Part shown: one piece after another, positions 7,079 through 63,960 of the stretch
How positions within the stretch are numbered: the first letter of the stretch is position 1
Layout of the letters: the number at the start of each line of letters is the position of its first letter
NCBI GenBank assembly: GCA_016208965.1
Contig: JACQXB010000006.1
Coordinates: 58,262-122,261, forward strand
DNA length: 64,000 nt
DNA from: Nitrospirota bacterium
Lineage (GTDB): Bacteria; Nitrospirota; Thermodesulfovibrionia; UBA6902; DSMQ01
Reading direction: 5' to 3'
Notes under the pieces: model-generated
What the model was told of the DNA's origin: nothing
The model's database searches: none
What the model saw: only the letters and a program-made list of their open reading frames with translations
Translations under genes and position numbers: made by a program

Positions 7079-7504
7079 CTATTCGGGATGATTTTTGGTT
7101 TTTGGTTTTTGAATTTTATCAAGGATACCGTTTATAAATGTGTATGAATCTTCTGTTCCGTATTTCTTTGCTATCTCAATTGCCTCATTAATTGTGACTG
7201 ATGAAGGTATCGTGTCCTGATAAAGCAGTTCATAGGTAGCGGCTCTAAGGATATTTCTATCAATGACAGCCATCCTGTCTATACTCCAGCGCTCTGCTAC
7301 CTGTTTTATAACACTGTCTATTTTTTCTATATGCTCAACAGTCCCTTCAACAATGGTGCTTGCAAATTTTCTTACATCATCATCTTCTTTAATCCCATTC
7401 CAGAAATCTTTATATAAAGAGGCAGGAATTACTTTCATGGAGTTTGTAAGGTCAAGCTGAAACAGCATCTGAAGGGCATATTCTCTGGCTCTACGGCGCT
7501 TCAT
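7079..7504 (-). CDS. nusB: Transcription antitermination factor NusB
   Basis: MKRRRAREYALQMLFQLD... The longer ORF N-terminus is read-through of the 7-mer tandem repeat at 7503-7552, so the start is set at the internal Met. Confidence 0.85.
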   Translation of the reverse strand: MKRRRAREYALQMLFQLDLTNSMKVIPASLYKDFWNGIKEDDDVRKFASTIVEGTVEHIEKIDSVIKQVAERWSIDRMAVIDRNILRAATYELLYQDTIPSSVTINEAIEIAKKYGTEDSYTFINGILDKIQKPKTKNHPE

Positions 7505-7552
7505 AGGGCAGTGACGAGTGACGAGCAACAAGTGACAAGTAACAAGTAACAG
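7503..7552. repeat. Heptanucleotide tandem repeat (gtgacga/gtgacaa/gtaacaa)
   Basis: Seven consecutive 7-mers read directly. Confidence 0.8.
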
Positions 7553-7634
7553 CAAAATGCAAAATTCGGGATGCGCATCGCAGAATTAAAATCCGGGATC
7601 TGAAATCTGAAATCAGAAATTGAGAACTCGTTAC

Positions 7635-8096
7635 TCATAACTTCTTTAAGAGTTGCGCCATTTCTATGGCTACCATTGCAGCATCAGCCCCTTTATTACC
7701 GCTTTTTGTTCCTGCCCTTTCTATTGCCTGCTCAATGGTATCAGCGGTAATTACACCAAATGCCATTGGTATGCCTGTCTCCATTGAGGCAGACGCAATC
7801 CCTTTGGCTGTTTCTGAGGCAACATATTCAAAATGAGGTGTGGCTCCTCTGATTATAGTTCCAAGACATATAATGGCATCGTAGGTATTTTTTGAGGTGA
7901 TTTTCTTTGCAATAAGTGGTATTTCAAATGACCCGGGTACCTTTATCACATCTATATTTTTTTCATCTGCCCCATGCCTCAAGAGCACATCCATTGCCCC
8001 GTCCAGTAATTTGCTTGTAATAAAATCATTAAACCTGCTTACTATTATCCCGAATCTTAAGCCCTTTGCCTGAAGCTCTCCTTCATATGTTTTCAT
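7635..8096 (-). CDS. ribH: 6,7-dimethyl-8-ribityllumazine synthase
   Basis: Typical RibH sequence [14 protein letters not shown]. Confidence 0.9.
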
Positions 8097-8151
8097 AATC
8101 CCTCCCTCTTTTTAAGCTGATAGCTGATAGCTCATGGCTCATAGCTCATGA

Positions 8152-9366
8152 TTACACTTCTTCAAGCATATGTCCAAGTTTTTCCTTTTTCGTCTTAAGA
8201 TATTTAAGATTTTTTTCATGGGGCATTATCTCTATGGGCACTCTTTCCACAACGCTCAGCCCGTATCCTTCAAGGCCAATAATTTTTTTTGGGTTATTTG
8301 TCATCAAACGCATCTTTTTTACCCCGAGATTTACGAGTATCTGCGCGCCTATGCCGTAATCCCTTAAGTCTGGCTTGAACCCGAGCTTTAGATTTGCCTC
8401 AACTGTATCAAATCCACTATCCTGAAGCTCGTATGCCTTTAGCTTATTTGTAAGGCCTATGCCCCTGCCTTCCTGCCTCATATACAAAAGCACTCCCTTG
8501 CCTTTTTTTCTAATGATATCCATTGCCTTATGAAGCTGTTCTCCACAGTCGCATCTCTTAGAGCCAAATACATCTCCTGTAAGGCACTCAGAATGAACCC
8601 TTACAAGCACCCTGTCATCAGGTTTAATATCACCTTTAACAAATGCTATATGCACAGTGCTGTCAAGAAGATTACCAAAGGCAATCGCGGTAAAATCACC
8701 GCCATACGCGGTGAATATTTTTGTGGTAGCAAGTCGTGTTACAAAAGATTCATTGCGCATCCTGTATTTAATAAGGTCTTTAATGGTAATGATTTTTAGA
8801 TTATGTTTTTTGCAGAATTTCATAAGCTGGGGCACCCTTGCCATTGTGCCATCGTCATTCATTATCTCGCATATAACACCTGCAGGCTCAAGCCCTGCGA
8901 GTCTTGCGAGGTCAACAGAGCCCTCTGTCTGCCCAGCGCGTTTAAGAATCCCTCCTGGTTGTGACCTCAGAGGAAATACATGCCCAGGTCTTACCAGATC
9001 ATCCGGCTTTGTTTTGAGATTTATGGCAGTTAGTATTGTTTTTGCCCTGTCATGGGCAGAGATGCCTGTTGTTACACCCTTTTTTGCCTCAATTGAAACT
9101 GTGAAGGCTGTCCCAAAACGAGAAGTGTTGTTTTCTGCCATCATTGGGAGTTTGAGTGCTTCAACACGTTTAGGGGTGAGGGATAAGCATATAAGACCCC
9201 TACCATGTTTCGCCATAAAATTTATAGCCTCAGGAGTTACTTTCTCGGCAGACATTGTAAGGTCGCCCTCGTTTTCCCTGTCCTCATCATCAACAAGGAC
9301 TACCATCTTGCCATTTTTGATATCCTTTATGACTTCTTCAATTGTATTGAATTTGTATTTATCCAT
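8152..9366 (-). CDS. ribBA: Bifunctional 3,4-dihydroxy-2-butanone-4-phosphate synthase / GTP cyclohydrolase II
   Basis: 404 aa. RibB N-half (RENEGDL) and RibA C-half (CxCGEQL). Confidence 0.9.
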
Positions 9367-9369: not shown

Positions 9370-9515
9370 TAAATTAAATCCAAAATCCTAAATTCTAATT
9401 TCTAAACAATATCAAAATTCTAATCTTAAAATGACTAAAACTTGTTTTGAATTTTGGATTTTTGCAATTTGATATTGTTTGGGATTTAGAATTTTGAGTT
9501 TAGGATTTTATGTAG
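9370..9515. repeat. AT-rich long imperfect inverted repeat in the ribE-ribBA spacer
   Basis: aaatccaaaatcctaaattctaatttctaaacaatatcaaa pairs with ttgatattgtttgggatttagaattttgagtttaggattt. Confidence 0.6.
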
Positions 9516-10182
9516 TGAATCCTCCTTCTCTTAGTTTTTCCATAAGCCCTGTATTATTGTCCCTGTTAGATAAAAATTTCTCCACGTATTTGCCTAATAT
9601 ATCAGCCTCAAGGTTTACCTTATCTCCAACTCCTTTAAATCCAAACGTTGTGGCGCTAAACGTATGCGGAATAATGGCGACCTTAAAGAATTTGTCCGAG
9701 ACATCTATTACTGTTAAACTTATGCCGTCAACTGTTATAGAGCCCTTCGGAACAATATATTTTAGAACTTTCCCTGGGGCATCAAATGTATAAAATGTAT
9801 ATTCTCCTTCCTGCCTCTTGTATTTTATTGTCCCCACACCATCAACATGGCCTGTTACTATATGACCGCCAAGTCTATCAGTTGGTCTTAACGCCCTCTC
9901 AAGATTTACTTTATCATTAACCTTAAGTTCTCCGAGGTTTGTATTTTTCAGTGTCTCAGGGGATACATCAAAAAAAAGTTCAGGGGTTTGAGTTTTGCCC
10001 GCCCCGCTTCGCGGAGCGAGGCCGGGGAGCTCAGAAACAGTAAGGCAGACACCATTTACTGATATGCTTTCACCTGTCTGTAACTCCACTTTGTAATCGG
10101 GTATAATGCACAACTTAATGCCAACCCCTGTATTTCTGATAGATGTAATCGTCCCTAAAACCTCAATCAGTCCTGTAAACAT
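9508..10182 (-). CDS. ribE: Riboflavin synthase alpha chain
   Basis: MFTGLIE..., SVNGVCLTV. Carries a ~12-aa GC-rich in-frame insertion (PGLAPRSGAGKTQTP) from the DNA at 9990-10030. Confidence 0.85.
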   Translation of the reverse strand: MFTGLIEVLGTITSIRNTGVGIKLCIIPDYKVELQTGESISVNGVCLTVSELPGLAPRSGAGKTQTPELFFDVSPETLKNTNLGELKVNDKVNLERALRPTDRLGGHIVTGHVDGVGTIKYKRQEGEYTFYTFDAPGKVLKYIVPKGSITVDGISLTVIDVSDKFFKVAIIPHTFSATTFGFKGVGDKVNLEADILGKYVEKFLSNRDNNTGLMEKLREGGFTT

Positions 10183-10548: not shown

Positions 10549-11235
10549 TTAATGAACAAGACTGCCTATCCTACTCCACCTTACTTTTTTCAGTAAATCT
10601 CCGTTTTTATCCCATGACCAGTAAATTATCAATGCCTTTCCTTTTACTTCATCCATATCTACATATCCCCAGAATCTACTGTCAAAGCTCTGGTCCCTGT
10701 TGTCACCCATCACAAAAAATTTCCCGTAAGGGACAGTATAAGGTCCCATATTAGGACATGGTTCAGGTAAATGAACTGTATATGGCTCGGACATGGCAAC
10801 CCCGTTTACATACACAGTCTTATTCTTTATCACAATCTCATCGCCCCCAACACCAATAACTCTCTTTATAAAATCCCTGCAGTCCGTTTTAAAAAAAGAA
10901 GCAATACTTTTACTCTCAATGACATTTTCAAACCTCTTTATAATGTTTTTGGAGAAGCCCTTACATTCCTCATTATTTTTAGGAAAAGAGAATACCATGA
11001 TATCTCCTCTTTTTGGCTGTTGTATAACCAGAAATCTCTTCTCTGTAAAGGGGATTTTAACACCATAAATAAATTTATTTACAAGTATATGGTCCCCTAT
11101 TTGAAGCGTGGGTATCATAGAGCCTGACGGTATCTTAAATGCCTGTATAACAAATGCCCTTATCAAAAGCGCAAGGATAAGGGCTGTTAAAATAGCCTCT
11201 ATATATTCTCTTAATTTTGATTTCCCTTTAGCCAA
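10549..11235 (-). CDS. lepB: Signal peptidase I
   Basis: SGSMIPTL and GDNRDQSFDSR boxes. Confidence 0.9.
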   Translation of the reverse strand: MAKGKSKLREYIEAILTALILALLIRAFVIQAFKIPSGSMIPTLQIGDHILVNKFIYGVKIPFTEKRFLVIQQPKRGDIMVFSFPKNNEECKGFSKNIIKRFENVIESKSIASFFKTDCRDFIKRVIGVGGDEIVIKNKTVYVNGVAMSEPYTVHLPEPCPNMGPYTVPYGKFFVMGDNRDQSFDSRFWGYVDMDEVKGKALIIYWSWDKNGDLLKKVRWSRIGSLVH

Positions 11236-11315
11236 TTTCTGTTTAACTCCATGTTTTTTAGTGTCAGTGTCAGTTTTCAGTGTCAGTAACTGACACCAAC
11301 ACTATTCACTGACAC

Positions 11316-13106: not shown

Positions 13107-13164
13107 AATTTTCAGCTCATGGCTGATAGCTGATAGCTGATAAGCTGATAGTAGTTACTATGAG

Positions 13165-16816: not shown

Positions 16817-17613
16817 ATGCCAAAAAAAGATGTAATTGCTGAAATATTTAAGATATGTAACAAAAAAATAATTTTACGTTCGATAATAATTTAGTAAAAG
16901 ATATTTCAAAAAAATGTAACTTTGGGAATCCGTTTGATGTAACAAAAATTGATAATAAAAATAAATTACCTGATATTTTACTGAAAAATGATTATGCGAT
17001 AATACATTTAGGCAGTGGAAAACATAAGTTTATTAAAGGTATAAAAAAAGTATTTCATAATTTCGAGCCTGTTCAAAAAGAAATTGAATGGACATATAAA
17101 AAAAGTTTATTAAACGAATATAATACAAGCGAATCAAATATATTGTCGGTAGCAAACAATCAGAGAATTTTGCATCATTTCTTATTTGGGAAAGATAAAG
17201 AATTTGATGATATAGAAATTCCACATCGTCCGAAAACCTATTTCCCCCACCGAACAAAAACAAGTCTTGAATATCGTTTTGGTAACGACTCGAAATTGAT
17301 TTTAAAAAATATTCAAATTGAAATAGATTTAACAATTGAATTTGAAGGCACCATCGGCGTATTTGAAGCAAAAAACGGCACACCTGATAGTTTTTCAATT
17401 TATCAAGTTTATCATCCTTTCTTATATTATCATAATATTAAACAAAAGCCTGAGATGAGTCGAAAAGTTAAAGAAATAATCTGTACTTATGTTGTAAAAA
17501 ATATCGAAGAAGAAATAACAAAGTTAAGATTATGGGCTTATACTTTTGAAAACCCAACTGATATTACATCTATTAAATTTATCAAATCGGCATGTTATAT
17601 TTTAAAAAAGTAA
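16817..17613 (+). pseudogene. Putative type II restriction endonuclease, reading frame broken at an A7 tract (16862-16868)
   Basis: ATG at 16817 gives a 25-aa product. The -1 frame is open from 16861 to 17613 and contains a PD...(D/E)xK-like IDLTIEFEG...FEAKNG. Adding one A fuses them into ~265 aa. The MTase follows 12 bp later. Confidence 0.45.
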
Positions 17614-17625
17614 AGAGGTGTTGTA

Positions 17626-18480
17626 ATGCAAGAAATTTTCCAAAATAAAATTTTCAATGAAGATGTAATGAGTGTCTTAAAACGAATGCCAGATAACTAT
17701 GTAGATATGATTTATAGTGATCCCGATTATAATGTCGGTATAAAATATAATGATAAGTCATATACAAAAGATTTTAAAGAATATATTGACTGGTATATCG
17801 AATTAGCCAAAGAATCATTAAGAGTTTTGAAAGATGAAGGTAATTTATTTTTTATTAATTACCCCAAACAAAACGCATATTTACAGGTTAAATTTCTAGA
17901 AGATGTTTGTTATGAAGTTTCTGAATATGTATGGATATATAACACAAATGTCGGTCATTCCCCCAAAAAATTTACAAGGGCACATCGCAGTATTTTGCAT
18001 TGCAGAAAAATAGAAAATAATAAATGGTTTAAAAAAAATGTTGCCGAGCCTTATAAAAATCCAACAGACAAGCGAATATTAGGAAATATTGCAAATGGTT
18101 CAACTGGCAGAATGCCTTATTCATGGTTATATTATAATTTAGTTAAAAATGTCTCACGAGATAAAACCATTCATTCTTGTCAAATACCATTAGGTTTAGT
18201 AGAAAAGTTGATTTTAGCTTCAACGGAAGAAAATGATTTAGTTTTTATACATTTTGGTGGTTCTGGCAGTGAAATAATACTGACAAAGCATTTAAAGAGA
18301 AAATTTGTATCCGCTGAAATAGATAAAATATATCATGATATGATACTTGAACGATTAAAAAGAAATGGCGACATTCCACATAAATATAAATTACAGATAG
18401 AAAGAAAGCAATCCGATAGAATTATTAATAACCAGATGGTTTTTTTTGACGCAAAAGCACAGAAACAAGACAATCTATAA
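17626..18480 (+). CDS. DNA amino-methyltransferase, beta class
   Basis: SDPDYN (motif IV) near the N-terminus and FIHFGGSGSE (motif I) near the C-terminus. Confidence 0.85.
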   Translation: MQEIFQNKIFNEDVMSVLKRMPDNYVDMIYSDPDYNVGIKYNDKSYTKDFKEYIDWYIELAKESLRVLKDEGNLFFINYPKQNAYLQVKFLEDVCYEVSEYVWIYNTNVGHSPKKFTRAHRSILHCRKIENNKWFKKNVAEPYKNPTDKRILGNIANGSTGRMPYSWLYYNLVKNVSRDKTIHSCQIPLGLVEKLILASTEENDLVFIHFGGSGSEIILTKHLKRKFVSAEIDKIYHDMILERLKRNGDIPHKYKLQIERKQSDRIINNQMVFFDAKAQKQDNL

Positions 18481-18646
18481 AGAGAAGTAGACAAACAACG
18501 TCACTTAAAGCAATAAAATCGTCTAACAATTCGCTCCAGCGGACAAAAAAGCTGCGCTTTTTTGCCGCTGAGCTCAAGTGTTAGGCCCTTTCAGAGGGAT
18601 AGAGGATTAGAAAGAAATCAAGCGAAACACATGAAAAGGAGCCAAT

Positions 18647-19645: not shown

Positions 19646-19784
19646 CAAAGCAAATGCACTCGGACGGCAAAAAGCGCCGCTCGTTCCTCGCTCTGCCTTT
19701 TGCCGCCAGTGATTTGCAACGTTATGTAAATAAGAATATTCAAAAACAATATTCAAAAACACATCGTTTTCAGTATAATAGTGC

Positions 19785-28419: not shown

Positions 28420-29994
28420 ATGAGGTCTTCTATAAAAACCGTAGATTTTCTAATAATTGGTGGAGGTGTTGCAGGGCTAAGGGCAGCAATAGAGGTTGCA
28501 CCAGTTGGGAGTGTCATTGTCCTTACAAAGGACATGCCTGCAGAGAGCAGCACTGGATATGCACAGGGAGGGATTGCAGTTGCACTTAGTGATGAAGACG
28601 AGGTAGGCATTCATTATGAAGACACTATAAATGCAGGAGATGGATTGTGTAATAAGGATGCTGTCAAGGTATTAGTTGAAGAGGGGCCAGAACTAATACT
28701 TGAGCTTATCTCATGGGGTGCTGAGTTTGATAAAGAGGGTAGTAAACTCGCATTTACCCAAGAGGCAGCGCATTCCCGCAGAAGAATCCTACATGCCCAG
28801 GGAGACTCCACAGGAAGGGAACTTGAACGTGTACTTATTAATAAAGTTCGCACTTTTAAAAGTGTTTCAAGGTATGATTTTGCATTTACTGTTGATTTAA
28901 TTATAAAAGACGATAGATGCGCAGGAGCCATTATTTTAAGAGATAGAGAAGCCATCCATATTTATGCAAAGGCTACTATACTTGCCACAGGAGGCGCTGG
29001 ACAGCTTTATTCAAGGACAACAAACCCTGCTGTCACAACAGGTGATGGAATGGCAATTGCTTACAGAGCAGGTGCGGTGCTTCAGGATATGGAGTTTATA
29101 CAATTCCATCCAACAACGCTTTATTCTCCTTCTGCTCCTCAGTTTCTCATTAGTGAGGCAATGAGGGGAGAGGGTGCAATATTAAAAAATATCCATGGAG
29201 AGAGGTTTATGCCAGGGTATCATACCCTTGCTGAACTTGCACCGAGGGATATAGTATCAAGGGCGATTATCTCTGAGATGGTAAGAACAAATGCAAAACA
29301 TGTTTACTTAGACCTTACGCATCTTGATAAGAATTTTGTTAAAGGACGATTTCCGAGGATCTATTCAACATGCCTTCAGTTTGACATAGATATAACAGAA
29401 GACCTTATCCCTGTCTCTCCTGCAGCGCATTATGTAATGGGAGGAGTTAAAACCAATCTAAACGGTGAGACAGACATAAAAGGTCTTTTTGCAACAGGCG
29501 AAGTTGCATGCACAGGGGTTCATGGTGCAAACCGTCTTGCCTCAAACAGCCTCCTTGAAGGACTTGTATATGGGGCAAGGGCAGGGAGGTCAGCAGGGGA
29601 GTATGTAAATAAAAGTCAGAAGTCAGAAGTCAGAAGTCAGAGGTTAAAAACTGCTTCTTCCATTTTGCCTTCATTTGATACAGTGAAGATAAAAAGTACC
29701 TTGAGACGTTTGATGTGGGAGAAGGTTGGCATTATAAGATGCAAGGAGTCTTTAAATGCAGCAAGGGAATGGTTAAGAAAATGGGATTCTATCCTTAAGG
29801 CGGATTTCACAAGCAGAGAAAGGCTTGAGCTAAAAAATATGCTAACAGTTGCTAATTTAATTGTGGACTCAGCCCTCCTTAGAGAAGGAAGCATTGGAGC
29901 CCATTATCGTTCTGACTTTAAAGAAAGAGGAGAAAACTGGCAGAGGCATGTTATATCTCAGAAAGAAAAAGGCTTACAGCGGGCTGATGCGTAG
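28420..29994 (+). CDS. nadB: L-aspartate oxidase
   Basis: FAD-binding LIIGGGVAGL and HYxMGG. Contains an in-frame (aagtcag)x4 repeat at 29619-29648. Confidence 0.9.
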   Translation: MRSSIKTVDFLIIGGGVAGLRAAIEVAPVGSVIVLTKDMPAESSTGYAQGGIAVALSDEDEVGIHYEDTINAGDGLCNKDAVKVLVEEGPELILELISWGAEFDKEGSKLAFTQEAAHSRRRILHAQGDSTGRELERVLINKVRTFKSVSRYDFAFTVDLIIKDDRCAGAIILRDREAIHIYAKATILATGGAGQLYSRTTNPAVTTGDGMAIAYRAGAVLQDMEFIQFHPTTLYSPSAPQFLISEAMRGEGAILKNIHGERFMPGYHTLAELAPRDIVSRAIISEMVRTNAKHVYLDLTHLDKNFVKGRFPRIYSTCLQFDIDITEDLIPVSPAAHYVMGGVKTNLNGETDIKGLFATGEVACTGVHGANRLASNSLLEGLVYGARAGRSAGEYVNKSQKSEVRSQRLKTASSILPSFDTVKIKSTLRRLMWEKVGIIRCKESLNAAREWLRKWDSILKADFTSRERLELKNMLTVANLIVDSALLREGSIGAHYRSDFKERGENWQRHVISQKEKGLQRADA

Positions 29995-37259: not shown

Positions 37260-37261
37260 TT

Positions 37262-39808: not shown

Positions 39809-39811
39809 AAC

Positions 39812-40591: not shown

Positions 40592-40691
40592 AACTATAAG
40601 AAAGCTTGAAAGCTCCCTACCAGCCTCAAACTTATTATAGCTTATGTTAGGGTAAAAATCAATAAATTTTAGCGGGTGAAATTTTAAAGAA

Positions 40692-51401: not shown

Positions 51402-51543
51402 AACTTATTCCTTCAAACCCTAAATTCTAATATCTAAATTCTAAACAAATTCTAATGTTCAAATAACCAAATTCAAAACAGTTTTGAATATTTGAATTTA
51501 GAATTTTGATATTGTTTAGTATTTAGGATTTCGGATTTAGAGT

Positions 51544-52599
51544 TTAAGCCTTATACGCTTTTTCCACCTCTTTTAACGCTTCCCTCATTTTATCTGTAAC
51601 TTTCTTTGGCACTACTATTTTTATGGTTACATATTCATCGCCCCTTATGCCTATTTTTGTATTAGGGATTCCCTTGCCTTTAAGTTTGAATTTTTTCCCG
51701 CTGTCTGTTCCGGGAGGAAGGGTCATTGTAACCTGGCCATCAAGCGTTGGAACCTCAATCTTTCCTCCAAGTACTGCTTCGCCAATACTCACAGACATAT
51801 CAACATAGATATCATCTCCATCGCGCTTAAACACAGCGTGCGGTTTAACAGTCAGTTCTATGTAAAGATTTCCGAGATGCCCCTTTTTTATACCTGCACC
51901 TCCCATGCCTTTTAATTTTAGTCTGCTTCCCGTATGTGCGCCTGGGGGGATTTTTACTTTTATGGTTTCAGTAACAAGCACAGTTCCACTCCCTCTGCAC
52001 GACTTACATGCCTTTGTAATTATCTTTCCTGCGCCCTTACAGGAAGGACATGTCTGACTTACTCTGAAATATCCTTTGCCCTGCTGTATCACCCCTGCGC
52101 CTTTGCAATTAGAGCATGTCTGAGAGGTCTCAGCCCCCGTCCCTTTACACGCACTACATGAAATCTCTCGTGTTAATGTAATAGGTTTGCTTACACCCTT
52201 ATATGCCTCCTCAAGAGAAATTTCAATGGATGTTGCAAGGTCAGCACCACGCAGCGGTATCTCTTCGCCCCTGCGGCTGCCGAAAAGGTTTGCAAAAATA
52301 TCTTCAGCACCGCCAAAATCAAAACCAAAGTCAAAGGGTCTAAACCCTTCAAACCCTCTTGCTCCAGCCTCAAAAGGAGTCTTTCCAAACTGGTCATAAT
52401 CTGCCCGTTTCTTTGGGTCGCCAAGAACCTCATAAGCCTCGTTTATCTCTTTAAATTTCTGCTCTGATGACTTATCGCCTAGATTTAAATCAGGATGGTA
52501 TTTGCGCGCTAATTTCCTGAATGCCCTCTTTATTTCATCCTGAGAGGCATCTCTTTTTACACCGAGCATTTCGTAATAGTCTTTAGTTGCGGTCGTCAT
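51544..52599 (-). CDS. dnaJ: Chaperone DnaJ
   Basis: J-domain (HPD), G/F region and four CxxCxGxG zinc repeats. Confidence 0.9.
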
Positions 52600-52926: not shown

Positions 52927-53073
52927 AAAATCCCCCTCCATCCCCCTTTTTCAAAGGTATGAACCAGAGCGGTTCATACCAAAGGGGGAAATTTTCCCCC
53001 CTATTAAGAGGGGATAAAGGGGTGTATTCCCCTCTTTAGCAAAGAGGGGTGAGGGGAGATTTTATAAATAGAG
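52927..53073. repeat. Composite cluster of 2-3 C6/G6 palindromic elements with an inner hairpin
   Basis: aaaatccccctccatcccccttttt...aaagggggaaattttcccccc...ctttagcaaagaggggtgaggggagatttt. Confidence 0.7.
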
Positions 53074-53154: not shown

Positions 53155-54375
53155 TTAATTCAAAAGCCTTACACGCACCTTTGCGCCTTTTTTTATAAAT
53201 TCTTCATCTTCAGGTAAAATCATCAGGCTATTGGCAAGCATCATTGATTTTAATATTGCAGAACCCTGAGGACCTGTAGCCTTTGTTATATAACCACTGT
53301 TTTCCCATCGGGTCTGTGCCCTGAGGAAAAACCTCAGTCCTTTTTTCTTCTTTATATCCTCATCTAATATAGCCTCTACCTCTTTTATGCTATCATCCTT
53401 CTGTCCTAACATCTTAAGGATAGCAGGCATTACAAACATCTCAAAACTCACCATGCTTGAGACAGGATTTCCCGGCAATCCAAACACAGGCTTCCCATCC
53501 ATTATACCGAATAATACAGGTTTCCCTGGCCGCATTGCGATTTTCCAGAACTTTATCTCTGCCCCTAATCTCACTAAAACATCTTTAATTAAATCATAGT
53601 CCCCCATGGAGACCCCGCCGGATGTAACTATTGCATCATGCCCTCTGCACAGATTTATCTTCTTCTCTAAATCCCCTATATCATCTCTTGCAATGCCTAT
53701 GTTTGCCGGCTCCCCACCGCAACTCAGTATCTGGTTATATAATGTGTAGGTATTAGAGGTTCTGAGCTTCCCGTGTGTTAATTGTTCTTCTACATCTATT
53801 AGTTCATCGCCTGTTGCCAGGATAGCAACATGGGGTTTTCTTGTAACCTTTGCCCTTGAGATACCTAAGGCTGCAAGCATACCTATATGGGCCGGCTTCA
53901 GTAATGTTCCCTTTTGAATCACAAGCTCGCTGCTTTTTATATCTTCTCCTGCCTTTCTTATGTTATCACCGTATTCTACCTCTTTAAAAATCTTTACTTT
54001 TGACTTTTGACTTTTGACTTTTGACTTCTCAGTCTCTTCAACCATTATCACAGAATCAGCACCTTTAGGTATTGGCGCTCCTGTCATAATCTTTATTGCC
54101 TGACCGTGTTTTGTCTCCATAGAGGCAGCAATACCTGCTTTAATTTCTCCAATAACATCCAAAATTTTTGGCGTCTCATTTGAAGCGCCGACAGTATCAG
54201 ATGATTTAATCGCATACCCATCCATTCCAGAGTTATCAAAGGCAGGGATATCGCCACTGCTAAATGCATCTTCATACAGCACTCTTCCTAATGAATCTGA
54301 AAGAGAGATAGTTTCTGAATCTAATGGTGCGATAGAGTTAAGTATAATTGTTAATGCATCTTCAACTTTTATCAT
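53155..54375 (-). CDS. moeA: Molybdopterin molybdenumtransferase MoeA
   Basis: 406 aa reading GGVSMGDYD. Contains in-frame (ttttgac)x4 at 53996-54027, translated KSKVKSQKSKVK. Confidence 0.85.
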   Translation of the reverse strand: MIKVEDALTIILNSIAPLDSETISLSDSLGRVLYEDAFSSGDIPAFDNSGMDGYAIKSSDTVGASNETPKILDVIGEIKAGIAASMETKHGQAIKIMTGAPIPKGADSVIMVEETEKSKVKSQKSKVKIFKEVEYGDNIRKAGEDIKSSELVIQKGTLLKPAHIGMLAALGISRAKVTRKPHVAILATGDELIDVEEQLTHGKLRTSNTYTLYNQILSCGGEPANIGIARDDIGDLEKKINLCRGHDAIVTSGGVSMGDYDLIKDVLVRLGAEIKFWKIAMRPGKPVLFGIMDGKPVFGLPGNPVSSMVSFEMFVMPAILKMLGQKDDSIKEVEAILDEDIKKKKGLRFFLRAQTRWENSGYITKATGPQGSAILKSMMLANSLMILPEDEEFIKKGAKVRVRLLN

Positions 54376-54520: not shown

Positions 54521-54575
54521 AAGCTAATAAGCTATAAGCTAAGAGCTAAAAGCTAATAGCTAATAGCTAAATAGA
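54521..54575. repeat. Heptanucleotide tandem repeat (a[at]aagct)x8
   Basis: taagcta ataagct ataagct aagagct aaaagct aatagct aatagct. Confidence 0.8.
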
Positions 54576-54629: not shown

Positions 54630-55784
54630 ATGAAGAGAAAAATTACAATAGGCACACGAAGTAGCAAGCTTGCCTTATGGCAGGCTGAATGGGTTAAATC
54701 TGAACTCAAAAAGCTTAACTCTGATTTAGAGATTGAACTTAAAAAGATTAAGACTACAGGTGATAAAATTCTTGATGTCCCTCTTGCAAAAATTGGCGGC
54801 AAAGGGCTTTTTGTAAAGGAGATAGAAGAAGCACTTTTAAGAAGAGAGGCTGACTTAGCAGTCCACAGCATGAAGGATGTGCCAACTGATTTACCTCAAG
54901 GGCTTCATATATCCGCTATATGTAAGAGGGAGAATCCGAGAGATGCCTTAATAGTAAGTCAAAAGTCAAATCCCCCCTTACCCCCCTTTGCTAAAGGGGG
55001 GCGTGGGGGGATTTTAAACTCGTCACTCGTTACTCGTCACTCGTTACTATACGAGCTTCCACATGGTGCAACAATTGGCACGAGCAGTCTTAGAAGAATA
55101 TGCCAGATATTAAGCATACAGCCTAATTTTAAAATTACACAGCTTCGCGGAAATCTTGATACAAGGATAAGAAAACTTGATGAAGGGAAGTTTGACGCCA
55201 TTATTGTTGCAGTTGCGGGTGTAAAAAGGCTGGGTTTATCTCATAGAATTACTGAAACTCTTGAACCTGATATATGTCTGCCCGCTATAGGTCAAGGGGC
55301 TGTTGGTATAGAATGCAGAACCGATGATAAATTTATAAATAGCATCCTTTCACCTTTAAATCACGTTGAAACATCTGTATGTGTGAAGGCAGAAAGGGCA
55401 TTCCTTAAGAGGTTAGAGGGCGGCTGTCAGGTGCCAATTGCAGCGTATGCGAGAATTGAGAAGATGCAAGATTCAGGATACAGGATTCAGGATACAGGAT
55501 TCAAGATACAGGATAATCATGCATCGTGCATCATGCATCATGCATCCGACATCGTCACTCGTCAATCATTACTATATATTGATATTGACGGTCTTATCGG
55601 CAGCGTCTCCGGAGACAGACTCATAAAAGGTCACATAGAGGGAAATCCTCAGGATGCAGAAAAACTTGGGGTCAACCTCGCGGAGGATTTACTCTCAAGA
55701 GGTGGAGAAAAAATACTTGCAGAGATTTATCCAGTTAGATCACTATCATCCGCTAACCATCTGAAACCCATTGATAATACATGA
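54630..55784 (+). CDS. hemC: Porphobilinogen deaminase with three in-frame repeat-derived insertions
   Basis: IGTRSSKLALWQA and the cofactor region are present. Insertions: a C6/G6 palindrome at 54968-55015, an (actcgtc/actcgtt)x4 run at 55015-55050, and 7-mer runs (caggata/caggatt)x6 plus (catgcat)x4 at 55462-55550. Confidence 0.85.
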   Translation: MKRKITIGTRSSKLALWQAEWVKSELKKLNSDLEIELKKIKTTGDKILDVPLAKIGGKGLFVKEIEEALLRREADLAVHSMKDVPTDLPQGLHISAICKRENPRDALIVSQKSNPPLPPFAKGGRGGILNSSLVTRHSLLYELPHGATIGTSSLRRICQILSIQPNFKITQLRGNLDTRIRKLDEGKFDAIIVAVAGVKRLGLSHRITETLEPDICLPAIGQGAVGIECRTDDKFINSILSPLNHVETSVCVKAERAFLKRLEGGCQVPIAAYARIEKMQDSGYRIQDTGFKIQDNHASCIMHHASDIVTRQSLLYIDIDGLIGSVSGDRLIKGHIEGNPQDAEKLGVNLAEDLLSRGGEKILAEIYPVRSLSSANHLKPIDNT

Positions 55785-58560: not shown

Positions 58561-59753
58561 GATATAAATTATATCATATCATGATAGAAAATATATCAAG
58601 TAACCAAGTTTTTTGGAAGGAATCAAAGAATATTTAACCCAGAAAATGCATTTCAAAATGATATGGATGACTGAAAAAGCTCTATTCGCAACACCTTAGC
58701 ATGTCGTTACATAATCAGTAAGTGCATAAATTTATGCAAAAACATTTATAAAGATTATGTAATGACACATATCAAATCTTGTTGCTTCATAGAGGTTTTG
58801 AAGGCATCCATATCTTCTTATTCCTTTTCTTAACTGCATTTTCTGGGTTAAAGGAATGCGAGTTTGAGATACTTAAATATAAGACAAAATACGGGTATTC
58901 TTTTAAAGTGGTTCAGAACCCTGAACAATACTGCACAGCTTGCTTTAACAATAACTACCCTATCTTTACTCCAGAGGAAAAAGTAGAGCAGATAGCGCTC
59001 TTTTAAGGTGTTCCTGAATTACTGCCAAGAAGTTCATAAGTATGACCACATGGACGTCATTCCTCCCGATGCTTCGGGATCGGGAATCTTTCTTTTCTGG
59101 AAGGATTGCGGACAAGCCGCAATGACAGTAATAGAGGGAGATGTGGCTTTACTTTTGACCGCATTAGTATTTACCTTCTTCTGTCTATATATTGAATTAA
59201 TTCTTTCTGGAAGTTCGGTATTACATCAATAAGTTTCTTGAAGTTTTTATATACTTCTTTATAATCTAACTCTAAATATTCATGGATGAGAATATTTCTA
59301 TATCCGCCTAATCCCTAATCCCTGATTTATTTTAGTCAAGTATTTTATGGCATAATTACAAAAATCGGTGTCCAGAAATTGCAAATTATTTTTTAAAATC
59401 AGGCATATTTATCTCTATATCTCCACTGCCAATCTTTATTGTCCGAGGCTTCGAGCCGCTTCTGCTTCCCTCTTGATCAGTACGCCTCTCATAATAGTCC
59501 CTTCTCCCGAAGAAGTCGGGACTGTAAGCTCATCCTCCACAGCCACCTCAAGCATCATCCTCGGTACGAACCGTCTGGTTCATACCTCGCCCCTATCCTT
59601 GTTAGCTCTGCCAGTGAACTCCTTTGCTTCAATTCTCCTAACCCTTTCTCAATGACTTTTTTTGACTTCTTTGATAAACTCTTTCTCATGGGTATAGTTC
59701 TCCTTTCTCCCTTTTAGGGATTGTTTTAATCCATTGAGAATTATACCCTTTTT

Positions 59754-60143: not shown

Positions 60144-62630
60144 TTAGAACTGTCCCCCTTTTTTCATTTTTTGTGTCTTGTGGATTCCCTCTGCCCTGAC
60201 TGCAAGATCAACCTTGCTGATCCAGTGCGTCCCAGGGAGAGGAGGATTGTCAATCCAGTTTGTTCCACCGCCGTGGCACTGTCCGCATGCGTAGTCAACG
60301 TCGACCCAGGCTGCGTTTGCATAGGTAGTAGTGGTATAGGTAGTGCCGCCAACTTCAATACTATGCGCATCATCAGACACCATATTGGCGATCTTCTTGG
60401 TAGCAGTACCACCGATACCGAACTCCAAAGCAGTCGGGAAGGTGCTGTAGCTGTCATCAGTATTGATCCTCCACAGGTGCATCGGGAAGCCGCCTGATGT
60501 TGCTTTAGGCATATGGCAAATCTTACAAGACTCAGCTTTTGCTTCAGCAGACATGTCTTCCTGAGGCGTTCCTGTTCCCATCTTGTGGGATATAGGTGTG
60601 GTTGCCTCAGTAGTGTGGCAAGTTACGCACTCCCTTCTTAAAGGCTCTGTTGCAGCAGGGTCGAAGAGACTCTGGTGAACATCGTGGCATGTTGTGCAGT
60701 TTCCCTGTGACTGATTAGCCCACCATGTGCCACCGGCATCAGCACATTGTGTGCTGGTCGTAATTTTTGTACCGTTTGCGTTGGTGGAAAGTATCGAACC
60801 CGTAGCTCCCGTGCCTGACCTGCAGAAAGAGTCTTTAAAGTTGCTGGCATACGTACCGCCGGAAACAATATCATACTTTCCGAGTGAGTTAGGCACAATT
60901 GTTCCTGTAAACTGTCCATGCGGGCTGTTCAGGAACGAGCCGCCCAGTACATGGCCGCTGAACTCCGGAATGTATGCCGGTGCGGTGGCGGTATTCTTGA
61001 CAGGAAGATACTCGGGATGAGTAAGGTCGTTATTTACGCCAGTACCATTAGTCTCCTTGGCAACGCTCTGGTGGCAACTGTAGCAAAGATTGTTTATATC
61101 GGATCCCGATGGTGTAAGATTATGAGTCGAAGTAACCGCAGTCGTTCCGCTATATACAGCCGGGACTGTTGAGGCATGGCACCTTGAGCATATAATACCG
61201 TCCTGGTCCCATTGTCCGGTTATACCGGCAATAGAGTTTTTGTCGGGATTAGACCCACCCTTTGCATACGAAGGGAAAGATGTCCCGGGTTCCAGTCCGC
61301 CTATGCCGTATCCCTGCACGCCTGTGGATGGATACCAGGTGCCTAATGCTGCTTCACACGTTGCCTGTGTGGTCTTTGAGGATATACTGCAAAGACCTAC
61401 CGTGGTGGTTTCGTTCCTCCAGCCTGTTGCATGGCATGATGCGCAACTGTAGCCAGAGCCGACGCCGTTATACCTGGCGTACGTACCCATCCAGACTACG
61501 GTGTAAAGACCGTCCGGCGCAGGCGCCATCCAGTCTCCGAAGAGGTACATCAGAGGCTTGGTGCCCCAAAGAGTGGTTGTAGCTGTTCCGGCGCCAAAGT
61601 CAAGTGTCTGGTAGTCGCCGGCCGTTGCTCCACTTGGTACCGCAGCCTGTGTATAGACAACGCTGTCAGGACCTGCCCAGTTCATGCCGGGGGTTACCTT
61701 CCTGAGCATGTTCTTGTGGCCTGTCATTGTGTAGTCCTGCTTCCATCTTTCAGCATACGAGTTATATTGTGATGTGTTGTTATGACATCTGAGGCACATA
61801 GTGGTGCTGGCGCTACCAGATGTTAGAGTAGCTACTGTTGCAGAACCGATTGTTGTTGTGCCGCTCTGGATGATTGTATTGTTCCATGAAAAGCCGTCGG
61901 TTATGCACGTGCCCATATTGGTATATGTTGTCAAGTCGGCCGGAAGTGCTGCATGGGCCGCAACAGTCGTTCCGCCGGCGAGGTTCTTAATTGGGTCCCA
62001 GTTACCGGTAGACCTCGATTTAGCACCATTTAAGCCTCCCCCAATACCATAAGCATAGATACATGAATTGGCCGAAGTACCCGAAGTACTCCATGAAAAG
62101 CCGATGCCTGCTGCGATACAGGAAGCCTGATCACCGTATGTAGAAGTTACATCTACCGAAGCATAGCAGAAGCCTTCTGTACCTGCTCCACTCGGTCCCA
62201 TTAAATACCAGGCAGAGGTACATTTTGATGCCCAGATTCCGCCATTTGCAGTGCACATGGCCGAAGTTCTATCCAGGCCGCTCAGGGATATACCGGTTGT
62301 CCCGCTGGAACAGGTGCTTGCCCAGAAATGGGCGCCGTCAGGATTTGTTGTAACTCCGCAGAGTGCCTGAGTTGTATAAGTAGAGGGCGACTGTAAATTC
62401 GCTATACAGTCAGCACGTGATGTTTTGGTTGCATCAATCGTCATGGTGCCGTCTGCTGCAATACCTGTAACGCATTTACCTCTGTCAGCAGGTAAATCCC
62501 ATAAGCCGGTCGTTCCGTTCTGTTCAGCGCCGTCAGGAAGGTAAATTGCCTGGGTGCTGCCGGCAAAGACAAACGGAATTGCCAGAACAAAAAACGCTGC
62601 CATAAAAAGCAGTTTAGGTTTAAATTTCAT
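60144..62630 (-). CDS. Secreted multiheme cytochrome c (8 CxxCH)
   Basis: Signal peptide MKFKPKLLFMAAFFVLAIPFVFAGSTQA. Haem-binding sites CLRCH, CASCH, CSRCH, CYSCH, CTTCH, CVTCH, CKICH, CGQCH. Confidence 0.85.
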   Translation of the reverse strand: MKFKPKLLFMAAFFVLAIPFVFAGSTQAIYLPDGAEQNGTTGLWDLPADRGKCVTGIAADGTMTIDATKTSRADCIANLQSPSTYTTQALCGVTTNPDGAHFWASTCSSGTTGISLSGLDRTSAMCTANGGIWASKCTSAWYLMGPSGAGTEGFCYASVDVTSTYGDQASCIAAGIGFSWSTSGTSANSCIYAYGIGGGLNGAKSRSTGNWDPIKNLAGGTTVAAHAALPADLTTYTNMGTCITDGFSWNNTIIQSGTTTIGSATVATLTSGSASTTMCLRCHNNTSQYNSYAERWKQDYTMTGHKNMLRKVTPGMNWAGPDSVVYTQAAVPSGATAGDYQTLDFGAGTATTTLWGTKPLMYLFGDWMAPAPDGLYTVVWMGTYARYNGVGSGYSCASCHATGWRNETTTVGLCSISSKTTQATCEAALGTWYPSTGVQGYGIGGLEPGTSFPSYAKGGSNPDKNSIAGITGQWDQDGIICSRCHASTVPAVYSGTTAVTSTHNLTPSGSDINNLCYSCHQSVAKETNGTGVNNDLTHPEYLPVKNTATAPAYIPEFSGHVLGGSFLNSPHGQFTGTIVPNSLGKYDIVSGGTYASNFKDSFCRSGTGATGSILSTNANGTKITTSTQCADAGGTWWANQSQGNCTTCHDVHQSLFDPAATEPLRRECVTCHTTEATTPISHKMGTGTPQEDMSAEAKAESCKICHMPKATSGGFPMHLWRINTDDSYSTFPTALEFGIGGTATKKIANMVSDDAHSIEVGGTTYTTTTYANAAWVDVDYACGQCHGGGTNWIDNPPLPGTHWISKVDLAVRAEGIHKTQKMKKGGQF

Positions 62631-63042
62631 TTCACTCTCCTTTCATTACATTATTCTCCCGAAGCGAAGCGAGAACCCGCGGATCATGAGGGGTATCTGA
62701 CACACCTGTTTCACCCACACCTACCCAAAAGAGCATCAGGCCGAGTCCAAGTCCTATCGCCAGAACTAAATAATGTCTTCTTCATCATTTTCACCTCCTT
62801 TCTAAATAAAGGAAGCACTTTTAAAAAGTGCTTTCCTAAATTATAGTTTGTTTAAAAATCTACTCACCCATAGATAGTCAAAGCTATCTATGGTCTTTTA
62901 TCCGGCACTTTCGAAAGTGCCGGATTTATAAGACAATTAATTTAATAATGATGACAAGCAAAATATATGCCAGTAGTAAATATTGCGGAAAACCCTTTTT
63001 AAAAATGAAAAAATGAACATCAGGATATTGGTAATTTCTGCT

Positions 63043-63094
63043 ATATTGGTGAAATCAGCATACCCACTTGCTGATTTCACCAATATAGCCTTCA
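63043..63094. repeat. Perfect 22-bp inverted repeat hairpin
   Basis: tgctatattggtgaaatcagca...tgctgatttcaccaatatagca. Confidence 0.8.
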
Positions 63095-63629
63095 TTTAAC
63101 CACCTAAAAATATCTTTGTGCCTTCTGAAAATGTCATTCCCCGACCCCCTTTTCGTCATTCCCCGACTTGCAGACTGTGTCGCAATTAATTATTTATAAA
63201 TGAGGCAAAAGAAATTCTTGTTAAGAATGAAATAGTGTAATATTATAGTGTTGCAAGGATATATTTAAAAGGGAAAATGGAGGGAAGGGGAATGGCATAC
63301 AGATATGGGGATAGGAATCAAGTAAACATGTTTCCACCGACGATATTGGGCGCTCTTGATGCTCAGAGCCTTCATTACTTCCAGGAATTCAGGAAAAACA
63401 AGAAAAACCAGATCATAAAGTTGATTCAAAAGTATACTGCGCCTTTGTATGCTACGTTCTCTGGCTTGAGTCAGTCTGCGAAGCTCTGCTACAGTGCCTT
63501 CAGGAATAATTACAGTAAGGGCATGCCCAAGCTCTATGATATCAGCGATAACTTTAGGGTCCTTCTGATCAGTTTTAGCAGGAGAATTCCCTTGAAGCTC
63601 TTTCAGTATATTTAGTTAGTGTCAAAGAT

Positions 63630-63960
63630 TCATAGTGTCACAGTGTCAAAGCTTTGCTCCTTTGATACTCTGATACTTTGATACTCCTCATAAGACCCTG
63701 TGGATTCAAAGCCTACAACTACTTCTTCAAGATTATGCGTTTTCTTCATCTGACAGACCTTTACCCAAAACTCCTGAAATCCTCTACTAGTGTTGAAAAA
63801 CTCAAATGGCTTTATGTCAGTTCCGTCAGGACATCTGCAATATCCGGTATGTTTCATTTTGCTCGCGTCCACTGTTGCAAGAAGTGTTTTCCCATTGACT
63901 CTCTTAAGCTTCTTTGTGTTAACATCTTTTCCCGACCCTTCGGGACTCCTTTCTTTGGTT
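63630..63960 (-). pseudogene. N-terminal fragment of an IS110-family transposase
   Basis: ...TLLATVDASKMKHTGY...FNTSRGFQEFWVKV...EEVVVGFESTGSYEEY then a stop. Confidence 0.45.

Follow-up and report, generated by a model that had tools for sequence, protein, structure and literature searches.

The locus raises the question of what its numerous short tandem arrays of 7-bp units are: tracts whose copy number tunes neighbouring genes, mobile elements, protein-binding sites, or repeat DNA of the kind known from cyanobacteria. The window, i.e., the whole 64-kb stretch of DNA that was analysed, derives from an uncultured, Thermodesulfovibrionia-like Nitrospirota MAG. Its HemC and LepA are 100% identical to proteins of 'MAG: Nitrospirae/Nitrospirota bacterium', and the nearest relatives are Nitrospirota and Thermodesulfovibrionia MAGs. 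The identities of nadB, moeA, hemC, nusB, ribH, ribBA, ribE, lepB, and hspR were confirmed with NCBIfam.

Arrays were detected with Tandem Repeats Finder and lag-7 self-match scans. Both recovered the 7-bp arrays that a sequence-only reading of the window had reported, with coordinates shifted by a few bases, including those inside nadB, moeA, and hemC. Most of the sites listed in that reading are heptameric, but 11258-11315 (period 6-7) and 63616-63700 (period 8) are only loosely so. Four arrays were additional to its list (7088-7117, 9375-9509, 51420-51546, and 59306-59327). Regions with at least 85% self-match at lag 7 over 14 nt numbered 14 in the 64 kb, as compared to 0.37 expected from 30 second-order Markov simulations; when the match was scored over 21 nt, 11 regions were seen and 0 expected. 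The same test of the 64 kb gave no enrichment at periods 4-6 and 9-12 and two regions (0.03 expected) at period 8; strong enrichment was confined to period 7. Array density in the window was 2.19 per 10 kb, about 25 times the 0.087 per 10 kb found in 80 control hemC loci from diverse bacteria (1.26 Mb, HemC identity to the window at most 61%). Thirteen of 19 arrays or array halves are non-coding, while non-coding DNA makes up 22% of the window (binomial p = 2e-5). At least 25 different heptamer units occur in ~220 kb. Most arrays are imperfect, and three are perfect over 3-4.6 copies. The window arrays thus have the properties of long heptanucleotide simple sequence repeats (SSRs) in the general sense, i.e., a unit of 5-11 nt and occurrence above chance. 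The arrays between genes are:

7510..7552, minus strand: direct array AGTGACG/AGTAACA, 5 nt upstream of the nusB start
7597..7621, minus strand: direct array ATCTGAA (as read on the plus strand), 13 nt past the ribH stop codon
8114..8150, minus strand: AGCTGAT/AGCTCAT direct repeats occupying the 55-nt spacer between ribBA and ribH
9370..9514, minus strand: first of two copies of a ~140-nt hairpin element, in the ribE-ribBA spacer (fold z -4.43)
11258..11315, minus strand: inverted pair of period 6-7, AGTGTC(A) against its complement, forming a hairpin (z -4.18)
13114..13151, minus strand: AGCTGAT direct repeats occupying the spacer between the ROK kinase gene and lepA, ending 7 nt before the lepA start
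51415..51547, minus strand: second copy of the ~140-nt hairpin element, made of heptamer arrays, in the dnaJ-hspR spacer (z -4.31)
54521..54572, no strand assigned: (AAGCTAA)7 array of 7.1 copies between the divergent moeA and hemC
59306..59327, no strand assigned: short (CCCTAAT)3 array in non-coding DNA
63618..63686, no strand assigned: inverted pair of period-8 arrays, AGTGTCAA / TGATACTC, forming a hairpin (z -4.03 on the plus strand)

Two structural types are evident in this list. Direct arrays are unstructured as RNA, as seen upstream of nusB (z -0.13) and in the ribBA-ribH spacer (z +0.58). The array upstream of nusB reads (ACTTGTT/ACTCGTC)n on the transcript strand, falls into one family with the hemC array at 55017-55048, and is 87% complementary to 55018-55048. 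Hairpin-type arrays, on the other hand, are multicopy imperfect palindromes with stable hairpins (four elements, z -4.0 to -4.4). The arms of the element at 9370-9514 are imperfect heptamer arrays (TAAATCC / TTTTGGA), the two ~140-nt elements match each other at 72-82% from arm to arm, and the hairpin at 11258-11315 begins at the first base past the lepA stop codon. It is conceivable, though conjectural, that hairpin pairs directly after a stop codon contribute to the stability or processing of the mRNA upstream. Selection at the RNA level on the hairpin-type arrays was considered and rejected; the transcribed strand does not consistently fold better and has no more G-U pairs. Rfam and tRNA scans of the window found nothing, and therefore no array belongs to a described RNA family.

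The position of the arrays relative to genes bears on the view that they are contingency loci, in which frequent copy-number change switches or tunes the neighbouring genes through promoter or ribosome-binding-site (RBS) spacing, leader peptides, or frameshifting. That many arrays lie immediately 5' of gene starts is literally correct, with distances of 5-22 nt to six start codons, but misleading, as the same arrays begin 0-13 nt past the preceding stop codon and do no more than occupy the short gaps between cistrons. The array at 8114-8150, for example, lies 1 nt past the ribBA stop and upstream of the Shine-Dalgarno sequence GGAGGGA, and the array precedes the Shine-Dalgarno sequence wherever one can be recognised, an argument against contingency loci. 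In favour of this view, the array at 54521-54572 is flanked by one promoter-like site on either side, one per strand, so that it lies between two divergent promoter-like sites. A check of the distribution relative to promoters found 0 arrays between the -35 and -10 elements of promoter-like sites. In the rib/lepA region such sites were no commoner than in shuffled sequence; at 51-56 kb they were somewhat commoner than in shuffles, and none was inside an array. Terminator-like sites in the rib/lepA region exceeded the shuffle mean, and none coincided with an array. There is a precedent in Nostoc, in which reporter expression is influenced by the heptamer repeats that precede recF and recO (bioRxiv 10.1101/2022.06.06.494920), and the three perfect arrays also count in favour of this view, but most arrays are imperfect and the genes are core housekeeping genes (rib operon, lepA, lepB, nusB, hemC, nadB, moeA) rather than surface or restriction genes. 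Copy number was unchanged in six contig comparisons across samples, a comparison of almost no power given contigs that are 99.97-100% identical at the arrays; the contigs, all with identical marker proteins, were of one genotype. Two hallmarks of phase-variable tracts were not found, namely location within a promoter spacer or in the 5' part of the coding sequence of a dispensable gene, and unit changes that switch the frame on and off. The proposal that copy-number change alters spacing or leader peptides thus gained no support from the housekeeping function of the genes, the empty promoter spacers, and the imperfect units, and we regard contingency loci as a very improbable explanation.

Five sites of the window carry arrays inside genes:

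7088..7117, minus strand: (CCAAAAA)n-type array in the C-terminal tail of NusB, about residues 130-139 (IQKPKTKNHP)
29610..29646, plus strand: perfect, in-frame (AAGTCAG)4.1 in nadB, encoding KSQKSEVRSQ
53991..54031, minus strand: perfect, in-frame (ACTTTTG)4.6 in moeA, encoding KSKVKSQKSKVK
54956..55048, plus strand: insertion hot-spot 1 of hemC, composed of (AAGTCAA)2, a 45-nt palindromic element (NPPLPPFAKGGRGGI), and (ACTCGTY)4.4
55470..55548, plus strand: insertion hot-spot 2 of hemC, a (GATWCAG)6.6 + (ATCRTGC)4.4 cassette encoding MQDSGYRIQDTGFKIQDNHASCIMHHAS

The reading frame stays open through each array within a called gene, which suggests that these arrays are translated rather than removed. 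They occupy variable loops or linkers or, in NusB, the C-terminal tail. The NCBIfam nusB match stops at residue 133 of 141, the nadB array lies in a variable, poorly conserved linker before the C-terminal domain, and the moeA array, which reads (CAAAAGT)4.6 on the coding strand and belongs to the AAGTCAA family, lies in a variable, poorly conserved loop. HemC residues 110-137 align to three and residues 277-318 to six residues of E. coli HemC. Hot-spot 1 adds 25 residues relative to the E. coli enzyme, and its (ACTCGTY)4.4 array at 55017-55048 encodes SLVTRHSLL; the two arrays of hot-spot 2 (55470-55515 and 55516-55548) lie within a 36-residue insertion relative to E. coli HemC. The placement of the HemC loops is based on sequence alignment to solved structures (E. 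coli HemC); an AlphaFold2 prediction for HemC, based on 25 sequences, had a mean pLDDT of 52, which is too low to place the insertions. In-frame arrays are also present in TopA, PurL, and CobN of relatives. The AAGTCAR family has the same coding-strand orientation in six of six in-frame occurrences (nadB, moeA, and hemC site 1 of the window; two hemC sites and an ABC ATPase of locus L088), and the antisense orientation would give TGA. The 45-nt palindromic element has at least nine copies in the window, co-locates with arrays, and is likewise tolerated in-frame. In hemC, the palindrome lies between an AAGTCAR and an ACTCGTC array, which as judged by eye are not complementary to each other.

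HemC orthologues reveal how in-gene arrays differ in length. Both loops are hypervariable across 120 orthologues, with lengths that range from 9 to 53 residues in one and from 17 to 67 in the other; the lengths peak at 36/43/50/57 residues for site 1 and at 22/29/36/43 residues for site 2. Loop length modulo 7 deviates from uniformity at both sites (chi-square p about 1e-5, 120 homologues, phylogenetic non-independence ignored), and residue identity is 0.162 at lag 7 as compared to 0.05-0.10 at other lags. The hemC DNA of the window and locus L082 differs by exactly three GATWCAG units, and that of loci L086 and L087 by exactly 21 nt. HemC loop lengths are thus quantised in steps of seven residues, i.e., 21 nt or three units. 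Length changes of three units in coding sequence cannot switch a gene off, and in-gene differences among orthologues in multiples of three units are a further argument against contingency loci.

The array load is restricted to one Nitrospirota sublineage. Loci of relatives with 77-84% LepA identity contain 32 arrays in 155 kb (2.1 per 10 kb), while 246 kb of other Nitrospirota loci contain 0 arrays. Within the sublineage, arrays turn over between species. Between the ROK kinase gene and lepA, the window has a 58-nt spacer with (ATCAGCT)n, L092 a 43-nt spacer with (CCTTGAC)4, and L097 a 16-nt spacer free of arrays; in L094 the two genes overlap. The genes ribH and nusB are separated by 130 nt in the window, by 153 nt in L092, and by 3 nt in L094; in some relatives, the spacers that are filled by arrays elsewhere have only 0-28 nt. 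The cassette (GATWCAR)n(ATCRTGN)n is shared by hemC of the window and L082 and also occupies a non-homologous site, the lepA-lepB spacer of L092.

Based on these data, the arrays are probably STRR-like (short tandemly repeated repetitive) heptanucleotide repeat DNA of a selfish or neutral kind, whose length changes by slippage and which is filtered by selection. Arrays would arise at permissive sites and, in some cases at least, would come in as ready-made blocks, as indicated by the one two-array cassette that different species carry at non-homologous sites. Array length would then change by slipped-strand mispairing in a 7-nt register, and homogenisation of the units within each array would leave orthologous arrays with different units in each species. 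Between genes, arrays would be tolerated in intercistronic spacers and inflate them from ~0-28 nt to 55-150 nt. Inside genes, they would survive only in surface-loop or linker regions, only in the orientation whose three frames are all free of stop codons, and only with a net length that is a multiple of 3 nt; in-gene length changes would therefore be limited to three units (21 nt, 7 residues). Differences between species point to slippage as the mode of length change and one shared cassette suggests block insertion as the mode of arrival, and the arrays would be without function. Pure slippage cannot explain the origin of in-gene arrays, since stepwise birth by 7 nt in an essential gene passes through frameshifted intermediates.

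This need for at least 21 nt to be inserted at once into an essential gene is one of several observations that fit a different view, in which the arrays are MITE-like or REP-like cassettes copied by a dedicated enzyme, e.g., a Y1/IS200-type transposase acting on hairpin DNA, with slippage being secondary. The shared two-array cassette of hemC and the L092 lepA-lepB spacer, the duplicated ~140-nt hairpin element, the several inverted pairs with strong folds (z about -4), and the co-location of arrays with the multicopy 45-nt palindrome fit this view as well, and the window itself encodes an IS200-like Y1 transposase (Y1_Tnp, 42160-42582). That gene, however, is not flanked by arrays or palindromes, many arrays are plain direct repeats without a hairpin (z about 0), and the diversity of heptamer units is hard to fit to one or few elements. 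Hairpin strength shows no consistent strand preference, and an unsystematic look found neither target-site duplications nor defined termini. No transposase or other copying mechanism for the arrays was identified. We therefore consider mobile cassettes a possible, though clearly less likely, explanation. Also rather unlikely, and speculative, is the broader idea of an undescribed copying system that has the arrays, and the 45-nt palindrome nested with them, as its cassettes. Such a system would place ready-made blocks of at least 21 nt into spacers and in-frame into surface loops of essential enzymes (HemC, NadB, and MoeA; TopA, PurL, and CobN of relatives) and would be shared or exchanged among the distant array-bearing lineages, i.e., heterocystous cyanobacteria, Beggiatoaceae, Geobacter, and this Nitrospirota clade.

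Recurrence of AAGTCAR and ACTCGTC at many sites and in several species could indicate a sequence-specific function or a binding protein. In its general form, this view holds that arrays are multivalent mRNA or DNA sites for a lineage-specific protein, e.g., one of the cold-shock or S1 type that binds one heptamer each, which regulates translation or transcript stability in operons. Such a protein was hypothesised for the TAACTGA repeats of Beggiatoaceae (PMC4679880), the direct arrays in intercistronic spacers are close to start codons, and their lack of RNA structure would leave them accessible to single-strand binding proteins. The units, however, are very diverse and differ between species at one spacer, the close relatives L094 and L097 lack arrays at the same spacers, and a regulatory role is unlikely for arrays in coding loops. 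Binding sites are thus an unlikely general explanation, and selfish or neutral repeat DNA remains our preferred reading.

How far this repeat DNA resembles known systems depends on the feature compared. The likeness to cyanobacterial STRR sequences proposed from the window alone holds for style, i.e., dispersed tandem 7-bp units of several families that are mostly intergenic, but not for membership. The unit consensus sequences are reportedly CCCCART for STRR1, TTKGTCA for STRR2, and CAACAGT for STRR3, and the window contains no tandem of two or more copies of any of them on either strand. STRR sequences were described from heterocystous cyanobacteria, namely Calothrix PCC 7601 (Mazel et al. 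1990, as cited in PMC4692102), and the present host is a member of Nitrospirota. Both have few copies per array and many dispersed arrays, which are mainly intergenic within operons, and occupied spacers vary between close relatives. Unlike STRR, a large share of the window arrays lies in-frame inside housekeeping genes. According to the summaries in PMC4679880 and PMC4692102, the survey of Mrazek, Guo and Shah (2007) found an excess of heptamers in bacteria, for which polymerase slippage was proposed, and units in multiples of three as the likeliest in coding regions. The window arrays share with this heptanucleotide SSR class, as there summarised, the excess of period 7 over all other periods and the proposed cause; they differ from the summarised survey by a lineage outside its coverage and by 7-nt units that are placed in coding loops under a 21-nt constraint.

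TAACTGA direct repeats occur in marine Beggiatoaceae, some cyanobacteria, and some Bacteroidetes (MacGregor 2015, PMC4679880). These resemble the window arrays in comprising 2-6 heptamers a few nucleotides before start codons, including those of essential genes, in occasional copies within ORFs, and in a patchy phylogenetic distribution (PMC4679880). Beggiatoaceae, in contrast, have one dominant unit in fixed orientation, whereas the window has many units and its arrays equally abut upstream stop codons; TAACTGA itself is present as three single copies in the window, none in tandem. In Geobacter metallireducens, 49 genic and intergenic sites carry four GGACCGG repeats, and a further element has five MTYCTGA repeats (Aklujkar et al. 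2009, PMC2700814). The window likewise has dispersed groups of four to five heptamers in tandem, in genes as well as between them, and the reverse complement of the AAGTCAG unit of nadB, CTTCTGA, fits the MTYCTGA consensus. The Geobacter elements differ by forming few fixed families, interpreted as regulatory sites (PMC2700814), as opposed to the many units of the window, from which GGACCGG is absent altogether. Palindromic repeats of the REP/REPIN and MITE types (e.g., Bertels and Rainey 2011, PMC3116915) are comparable to the hairpin-type array pairs and the 45-nt palindrome, which are short, multicopy, hairpin-forming, intergenic, and often located directly past stop codons, with a Y1 transposase gene in the same window. 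They differ in that tandem heptamers make up the arms of the hairpin elements in the window, many arrays lack a palindromic partner, palindrome and arrays are tolerated in-frame in genes, and a RAYT-REP flanking arrangement is lacking.

We found no description of heptamer tandem repeats in Nitrospirae in the literature. The present arrays extend STRR-type heptamer repeats, long regarded as a hallmark of heterocystous cyanobacteria, to an uncultured Nitrospirota sublineage, and provide a clean natural experiment of a repeat unit that is not a multiple of three living inside essential genes. Low-complexity peptides made by the arrays and the palindrome (KSQKSEV, SLVTRHS, NPPLPPFSKGG) can mislead annotation, homology search, and structure prediction, and the arrays are likely break points in short-read assembly. 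Close relatives with sharply different array loads are a place to seek the replication, repair, or mobile-element gene that is responsible for the heptamer excess.

The window contained about 25 period-7 rows as detected by Tandem Repeats Finder. A lag-7 self-match scan (threshold ≥85% over 14 nt) recovered 14 regions, compared to 0.37 in second-order Markov simulations, and 11 regions compared to none when the scan window was extended to 21 nt. Relative to simulations, the self-match scan of the window revealed no excess at periods 4–6 and 9–12, and two regions (0.03 simulated) at period 8. Exact runs of at least three copies, searched at periods of 1 to 15, were exclusively heptamers (13122–13142, 29613–29641, and 53996–54027). 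Dispersed heptamer arrays are thereby confirmed in this window. For the arrays at 7510–7552, 7597–7621, 8114–8150, 13114–13151, and 54521–54572, the positions given by a sequence-only reading are accurate to a few bases. Its heptamer runs at 11258–11315 and 63616–63700 are indeed repeats, but the former is a period 6–7 inverted pair and the latter a period-8 inverted pair. Runs claimed for hemC without coordinates correspond to three arrays (55017–55048, 55470–55515, and 55516–55548), and further arrays at 7088–7117, 9375–9509, 51420–51546, and 59306–59327 had been overlooked.

Non-coding DNA makes up only 22% of the window but holds 13 of the 19 arrays or array halves (binomial p = 2e-5). These non-coding arrays mostly occupy intercistronic spacers of co-oriented housekeeping genes, in the runs ROK-lepA-lepB-orf-ribE-ribBA-ribH-nusB and dnaJ-hspR (NCBIfam confirmed nadB, moeA, hemC, nusB, ribH, ribBA, ribE, lepB, the ROK kinase gene, and hspR). 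Spacer arrays start 0–13 nt past the preceding stop codon and stop 5–22 nt short of the following start codon, upstream of the visible Shine-Dalgarno sequences (e.g., ribH, ...AUCAGCUU AAAAAGAGGGAGGGAUU AUG). Only one array (54521–54572) lies in a divergent promoter region, flanked by promoter-like hexamer pairs and within neither. That the arrays are regulatory sites is unlikely, as the heptamer units are diverse and some relatives lack arrays at corresponding spacers. Direct arrays are unstructured as RNA (fold z +0.8 to −1.6), while inverted array pairs form long hairpins (fold z −4.0 to −4.4). Comparison of strands among hairpin-type arrays showed no consistent bias of hairpin strength towards the transcribed strand. 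One hairpin element of ~140 nt, an inverted array pair, is present in two copies:
9370–9514, first copy
51415–51547, second copy

The following arrays lie inside genes:
nadB, (AAGTCAG)4.1, encoding KSQKSEVRSQ in a poorly conserved linker preceding the C-terminal domain
moeA, (AAGTCAA)4.6, related to the nadB array, encoding KSKVKSQKSKVK in a variable loop
nusB, array providing the C-terminal tail
hemC site 1, residues 110–137, compared to 3 residues in E. coli HemC; DNA order (AAGTCAA)2, a 45-nt palindrome, (ACTCGTY)4.4
hemC site 2, residues 277–318, compared to 6 residues in E. coli HemC; (GATWCAG)6.6, (ATCRTGC)4.4, and an ACTCGTC remnant

Loci of relatives carry in-gene arrays in topA, purL, cobN, cobA-hemD, radical-SAM genes, an ABC ATPase gene, and ribE. 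The reading frame stays open across all in-gene arrays, which are therefore translated rather than removed. The AAGTCAR family occurs in frame six times (nadB, moeA, and hemC site 1 of the window; two hemC sites and an ABC ATPase gene of the relative L088), always in this coding-strand orientation; the antisense orientation would introduce TGA. Within a radical-SAM (CofH-like) gene of another relative, L082, an inverted pair (GAGTTGA)5/(AAACTTT)5 at 7694–7788 folds with −28.5 kcal/mol on the non-coding strand versus −12.5 kcal/mol on the mRNA strand.

Among 120 homologues, the HemC loops are hypervariable (17–67 residues at site 1, 9–53 at site 2) and draw on a small vocabulary of 7-residue periodic peptides (e.g., SQKSKVK, RSQKSEV, KIQDSGY, SLVTRHS, QRAKSKE, SKFKIQN) and the translated palindrome (NPPLPPFSKGGxGGI). 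Lag-7 residue identity at site 2 is 0.162, compared to 0.05–0.10 at the remaining lags. Loop lengths peak at 36/43/50/57 (site 1) and 22/29/36/43 residues (site 2) and are strongly non-uniform modulo 7 (p ~1e-5 at both sites), more so than modulo 5, 6, 8, or 9, a significance that is overstated because the homologues are phylogenetically non-independent. At the DNA level, the length difference between hemC of the window and that of L082 is exactly three GATWCAG units, and between the arrays of the relatives L086 and L087 it is exactly 21 nt. The proposal that copy-number change switches or tunes neighbouring genes, as in phase variation, was not borne out: the genes concerned are housekeeping genes, and in-gene length steps between orthologues are multiples of three units. 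Orthologous spacers of the window and the relative L092 both hold arrays, with unrelated units; those of the relatives L094 and L097 comprise only 3–28 nt, or the genes overlap. The hemC site 2 cassette shared by the window and L082, (GATWCAR)n(ATCRTGN)n, is also present in L092, where it lies in the spacer between lepA and lepB. Contigs from other samples, chosen by identical marker proteins (L001/window; L083, L084/L082; L089/L088; L091/L090; L093/L092; L095, L096/L094), showed no array differences, with little power given that they are 99.97–100% identical where arrays lie.

HemC and LepA of the window are 100% identical to proteins encoded on a 167-kb contig and labelled 'MAG: Nitrospirae/Nitrospirota bacterium', which rules out a cyanobacterial host. 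The closest other LepA relatives have at most 83–84% identity, the named ones being Nitrospirota or Thermodesulfovibrionia MAGs; LepA of 'Candidatus Mariimomonas ferrooxydans' is 77–78% identical.

Density of heptamer arrays
Window: 14 arrays in 64 kb, 2.19 per 10 kb
Nine relatives' loci (L082, L085–L088, L090, L092, L094, L097): 32 arrays in 155 kb, 2.06 per 10 kb (the hemC-centred loci being picked partly for hemC insertions)
17 other Nitrospirota loci (including Ca. Sulfobium, magnetotactic MYbin3, Dissulfurispiraceae, Thermodesulfovibrio, and Nitrospira): 0 arrays in 246 kb, 0 per 10 kb
80 hemC loci of diverse bacteria: 11 arrays in 1.26 Mb, 0.087 per 10 kb

Without hemC arrays, the six hemC-centred loci (L082, L085–L088, L090) still have ~1.3 arrays per 10 kb. 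Among control loci, a Deltaproteobacteria MAG (L070) has (ATTGATC)n arrays on both sides of hemC (9926–9968 and 10935–10994) and a Desulfuromonadales MAG (L009) an inverted heptamer-array pair at 8669–8764; such arrays therefore occur sporadically beyond the Nitrospirota clade.

STRRs are known from Calothrix and Nostoc. The suggested analogy holds in that the window arrays behave like cyanobacterial STRRs (dispersed 7-bp tandem units, mostly intergenic), but under a strict definition they miss two defining features, host and unit sequences. No tandem STRR1–3, TAACTGA, GGGRATC, or GGACCGG units were found in the window. Heptamers are known to be over-represented among the SSRs of bacteria (Mrazek et al. 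2007, summarised in PMC4679880 and PMC4692102). Beggiatoaceae, cyanobacteria, and Bacteroidetes harbour TAACTGA arrays (PMC4679880), and Geobacter metallireducens has heptanucleotide elements of 4–5 copies both in and between genes (PMC2700814); the reverse complement of the nadB unit, CTTCTGA, matches the Geobacter consensus MTYCTGA. We found no literature description of such arrays in Nitrospirota.

The best-supported interpretation is that the arrays are STRR-like heptamer repeats, selfish or neutral DNA of one Nitrospirota sublineage. Their length would change by slippage in 7-nt register, as we infer from the three-unit steps of in-gene arrays and the turnover of spacer arrays. Within-array homogenisation may produce species-specific units at orthologous arrays, and selection would set survival, favouring spacers, loops, stop-free orientation, and 21-nt steps. 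Single 7-nt steps cannot build up an array inside an essential gene; this constraint and the shared cassette suggest that arrival in blocks is possible. A mechanism for block arrival was not found. The in-frame, 21-nt-quantised arrays in essential enzyme loops, the sharp lineage boundary of the arrays in general, and their nesting with a REP-like palindrome merit genome-wide follow-up.

This nested palindrome of ~45 nt (AAATCCCCCCnnnCCCCCCTTTGCTAAAGGGGGGnnnGGGGGGATTT) has at least nine copies in the window:
5630–5710 (two copies)
6615–6663
32424–32466
32503–32551
45209–45257
52927–52957
53021–63
54967–55015
and in relatives:
L086, 2336–2354 and 10377–10395
L087, 990–1008, 16578–16596, and 16782–16800

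At least five window copies are in frame within genes, encoding NPPLPPFxKGGxGGF-like peptides in a DNA methylase fragment (two) and in metallophosphoesterase, GH3 glycosidase, and hemC genes (one each). In hemC orthologues the palindrome is sandwiched between heptamer arrays, and that of L087 has an extra 24-nt insertion in the loop. One gene could encode a REP-associated transposase:
42160–42582, + strand, IS200-like Y1 transposase (Pfam Y1_Tnp, E = 1.8e-45)
Neither palindrome nor arrays were found in its flanks. A direct repeat of 93 nt (86% identical) lies at 42693–42785 and 43492–43584.

Restriction-modification or defence-like clusters at 656–6101, 17143–21369, and 36687–42038 have a lower G+C content (0.33–0.36) and include:
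656–1945, 5235–6101 (fragment), 17626–18480, and 20395–21369, N6/N4 DNA methylases
37814–39808, fused HsdR-N/N6-methylase
40692–42038, type I specificity subunit

Two direct duplications were observed, one of 248 nt (83%; 1949–2196 and 6221–6468) that represents the 3' part of the metallophosphoesterase gene (6221–7039, minus strand), and one of 120 nt (96%; 31329–31448 and 32009–32128) that overlaps the 3' end of the pyruvate kinase ORF. The region of highest G+C content in the window (0.47) encodes a secreted, Thr/Ser/Gly-rich multihaem cytochrome of 828 residues (60144–62630, minus strand) with MtrC/MtrF-like and paired-CXXCH matches.
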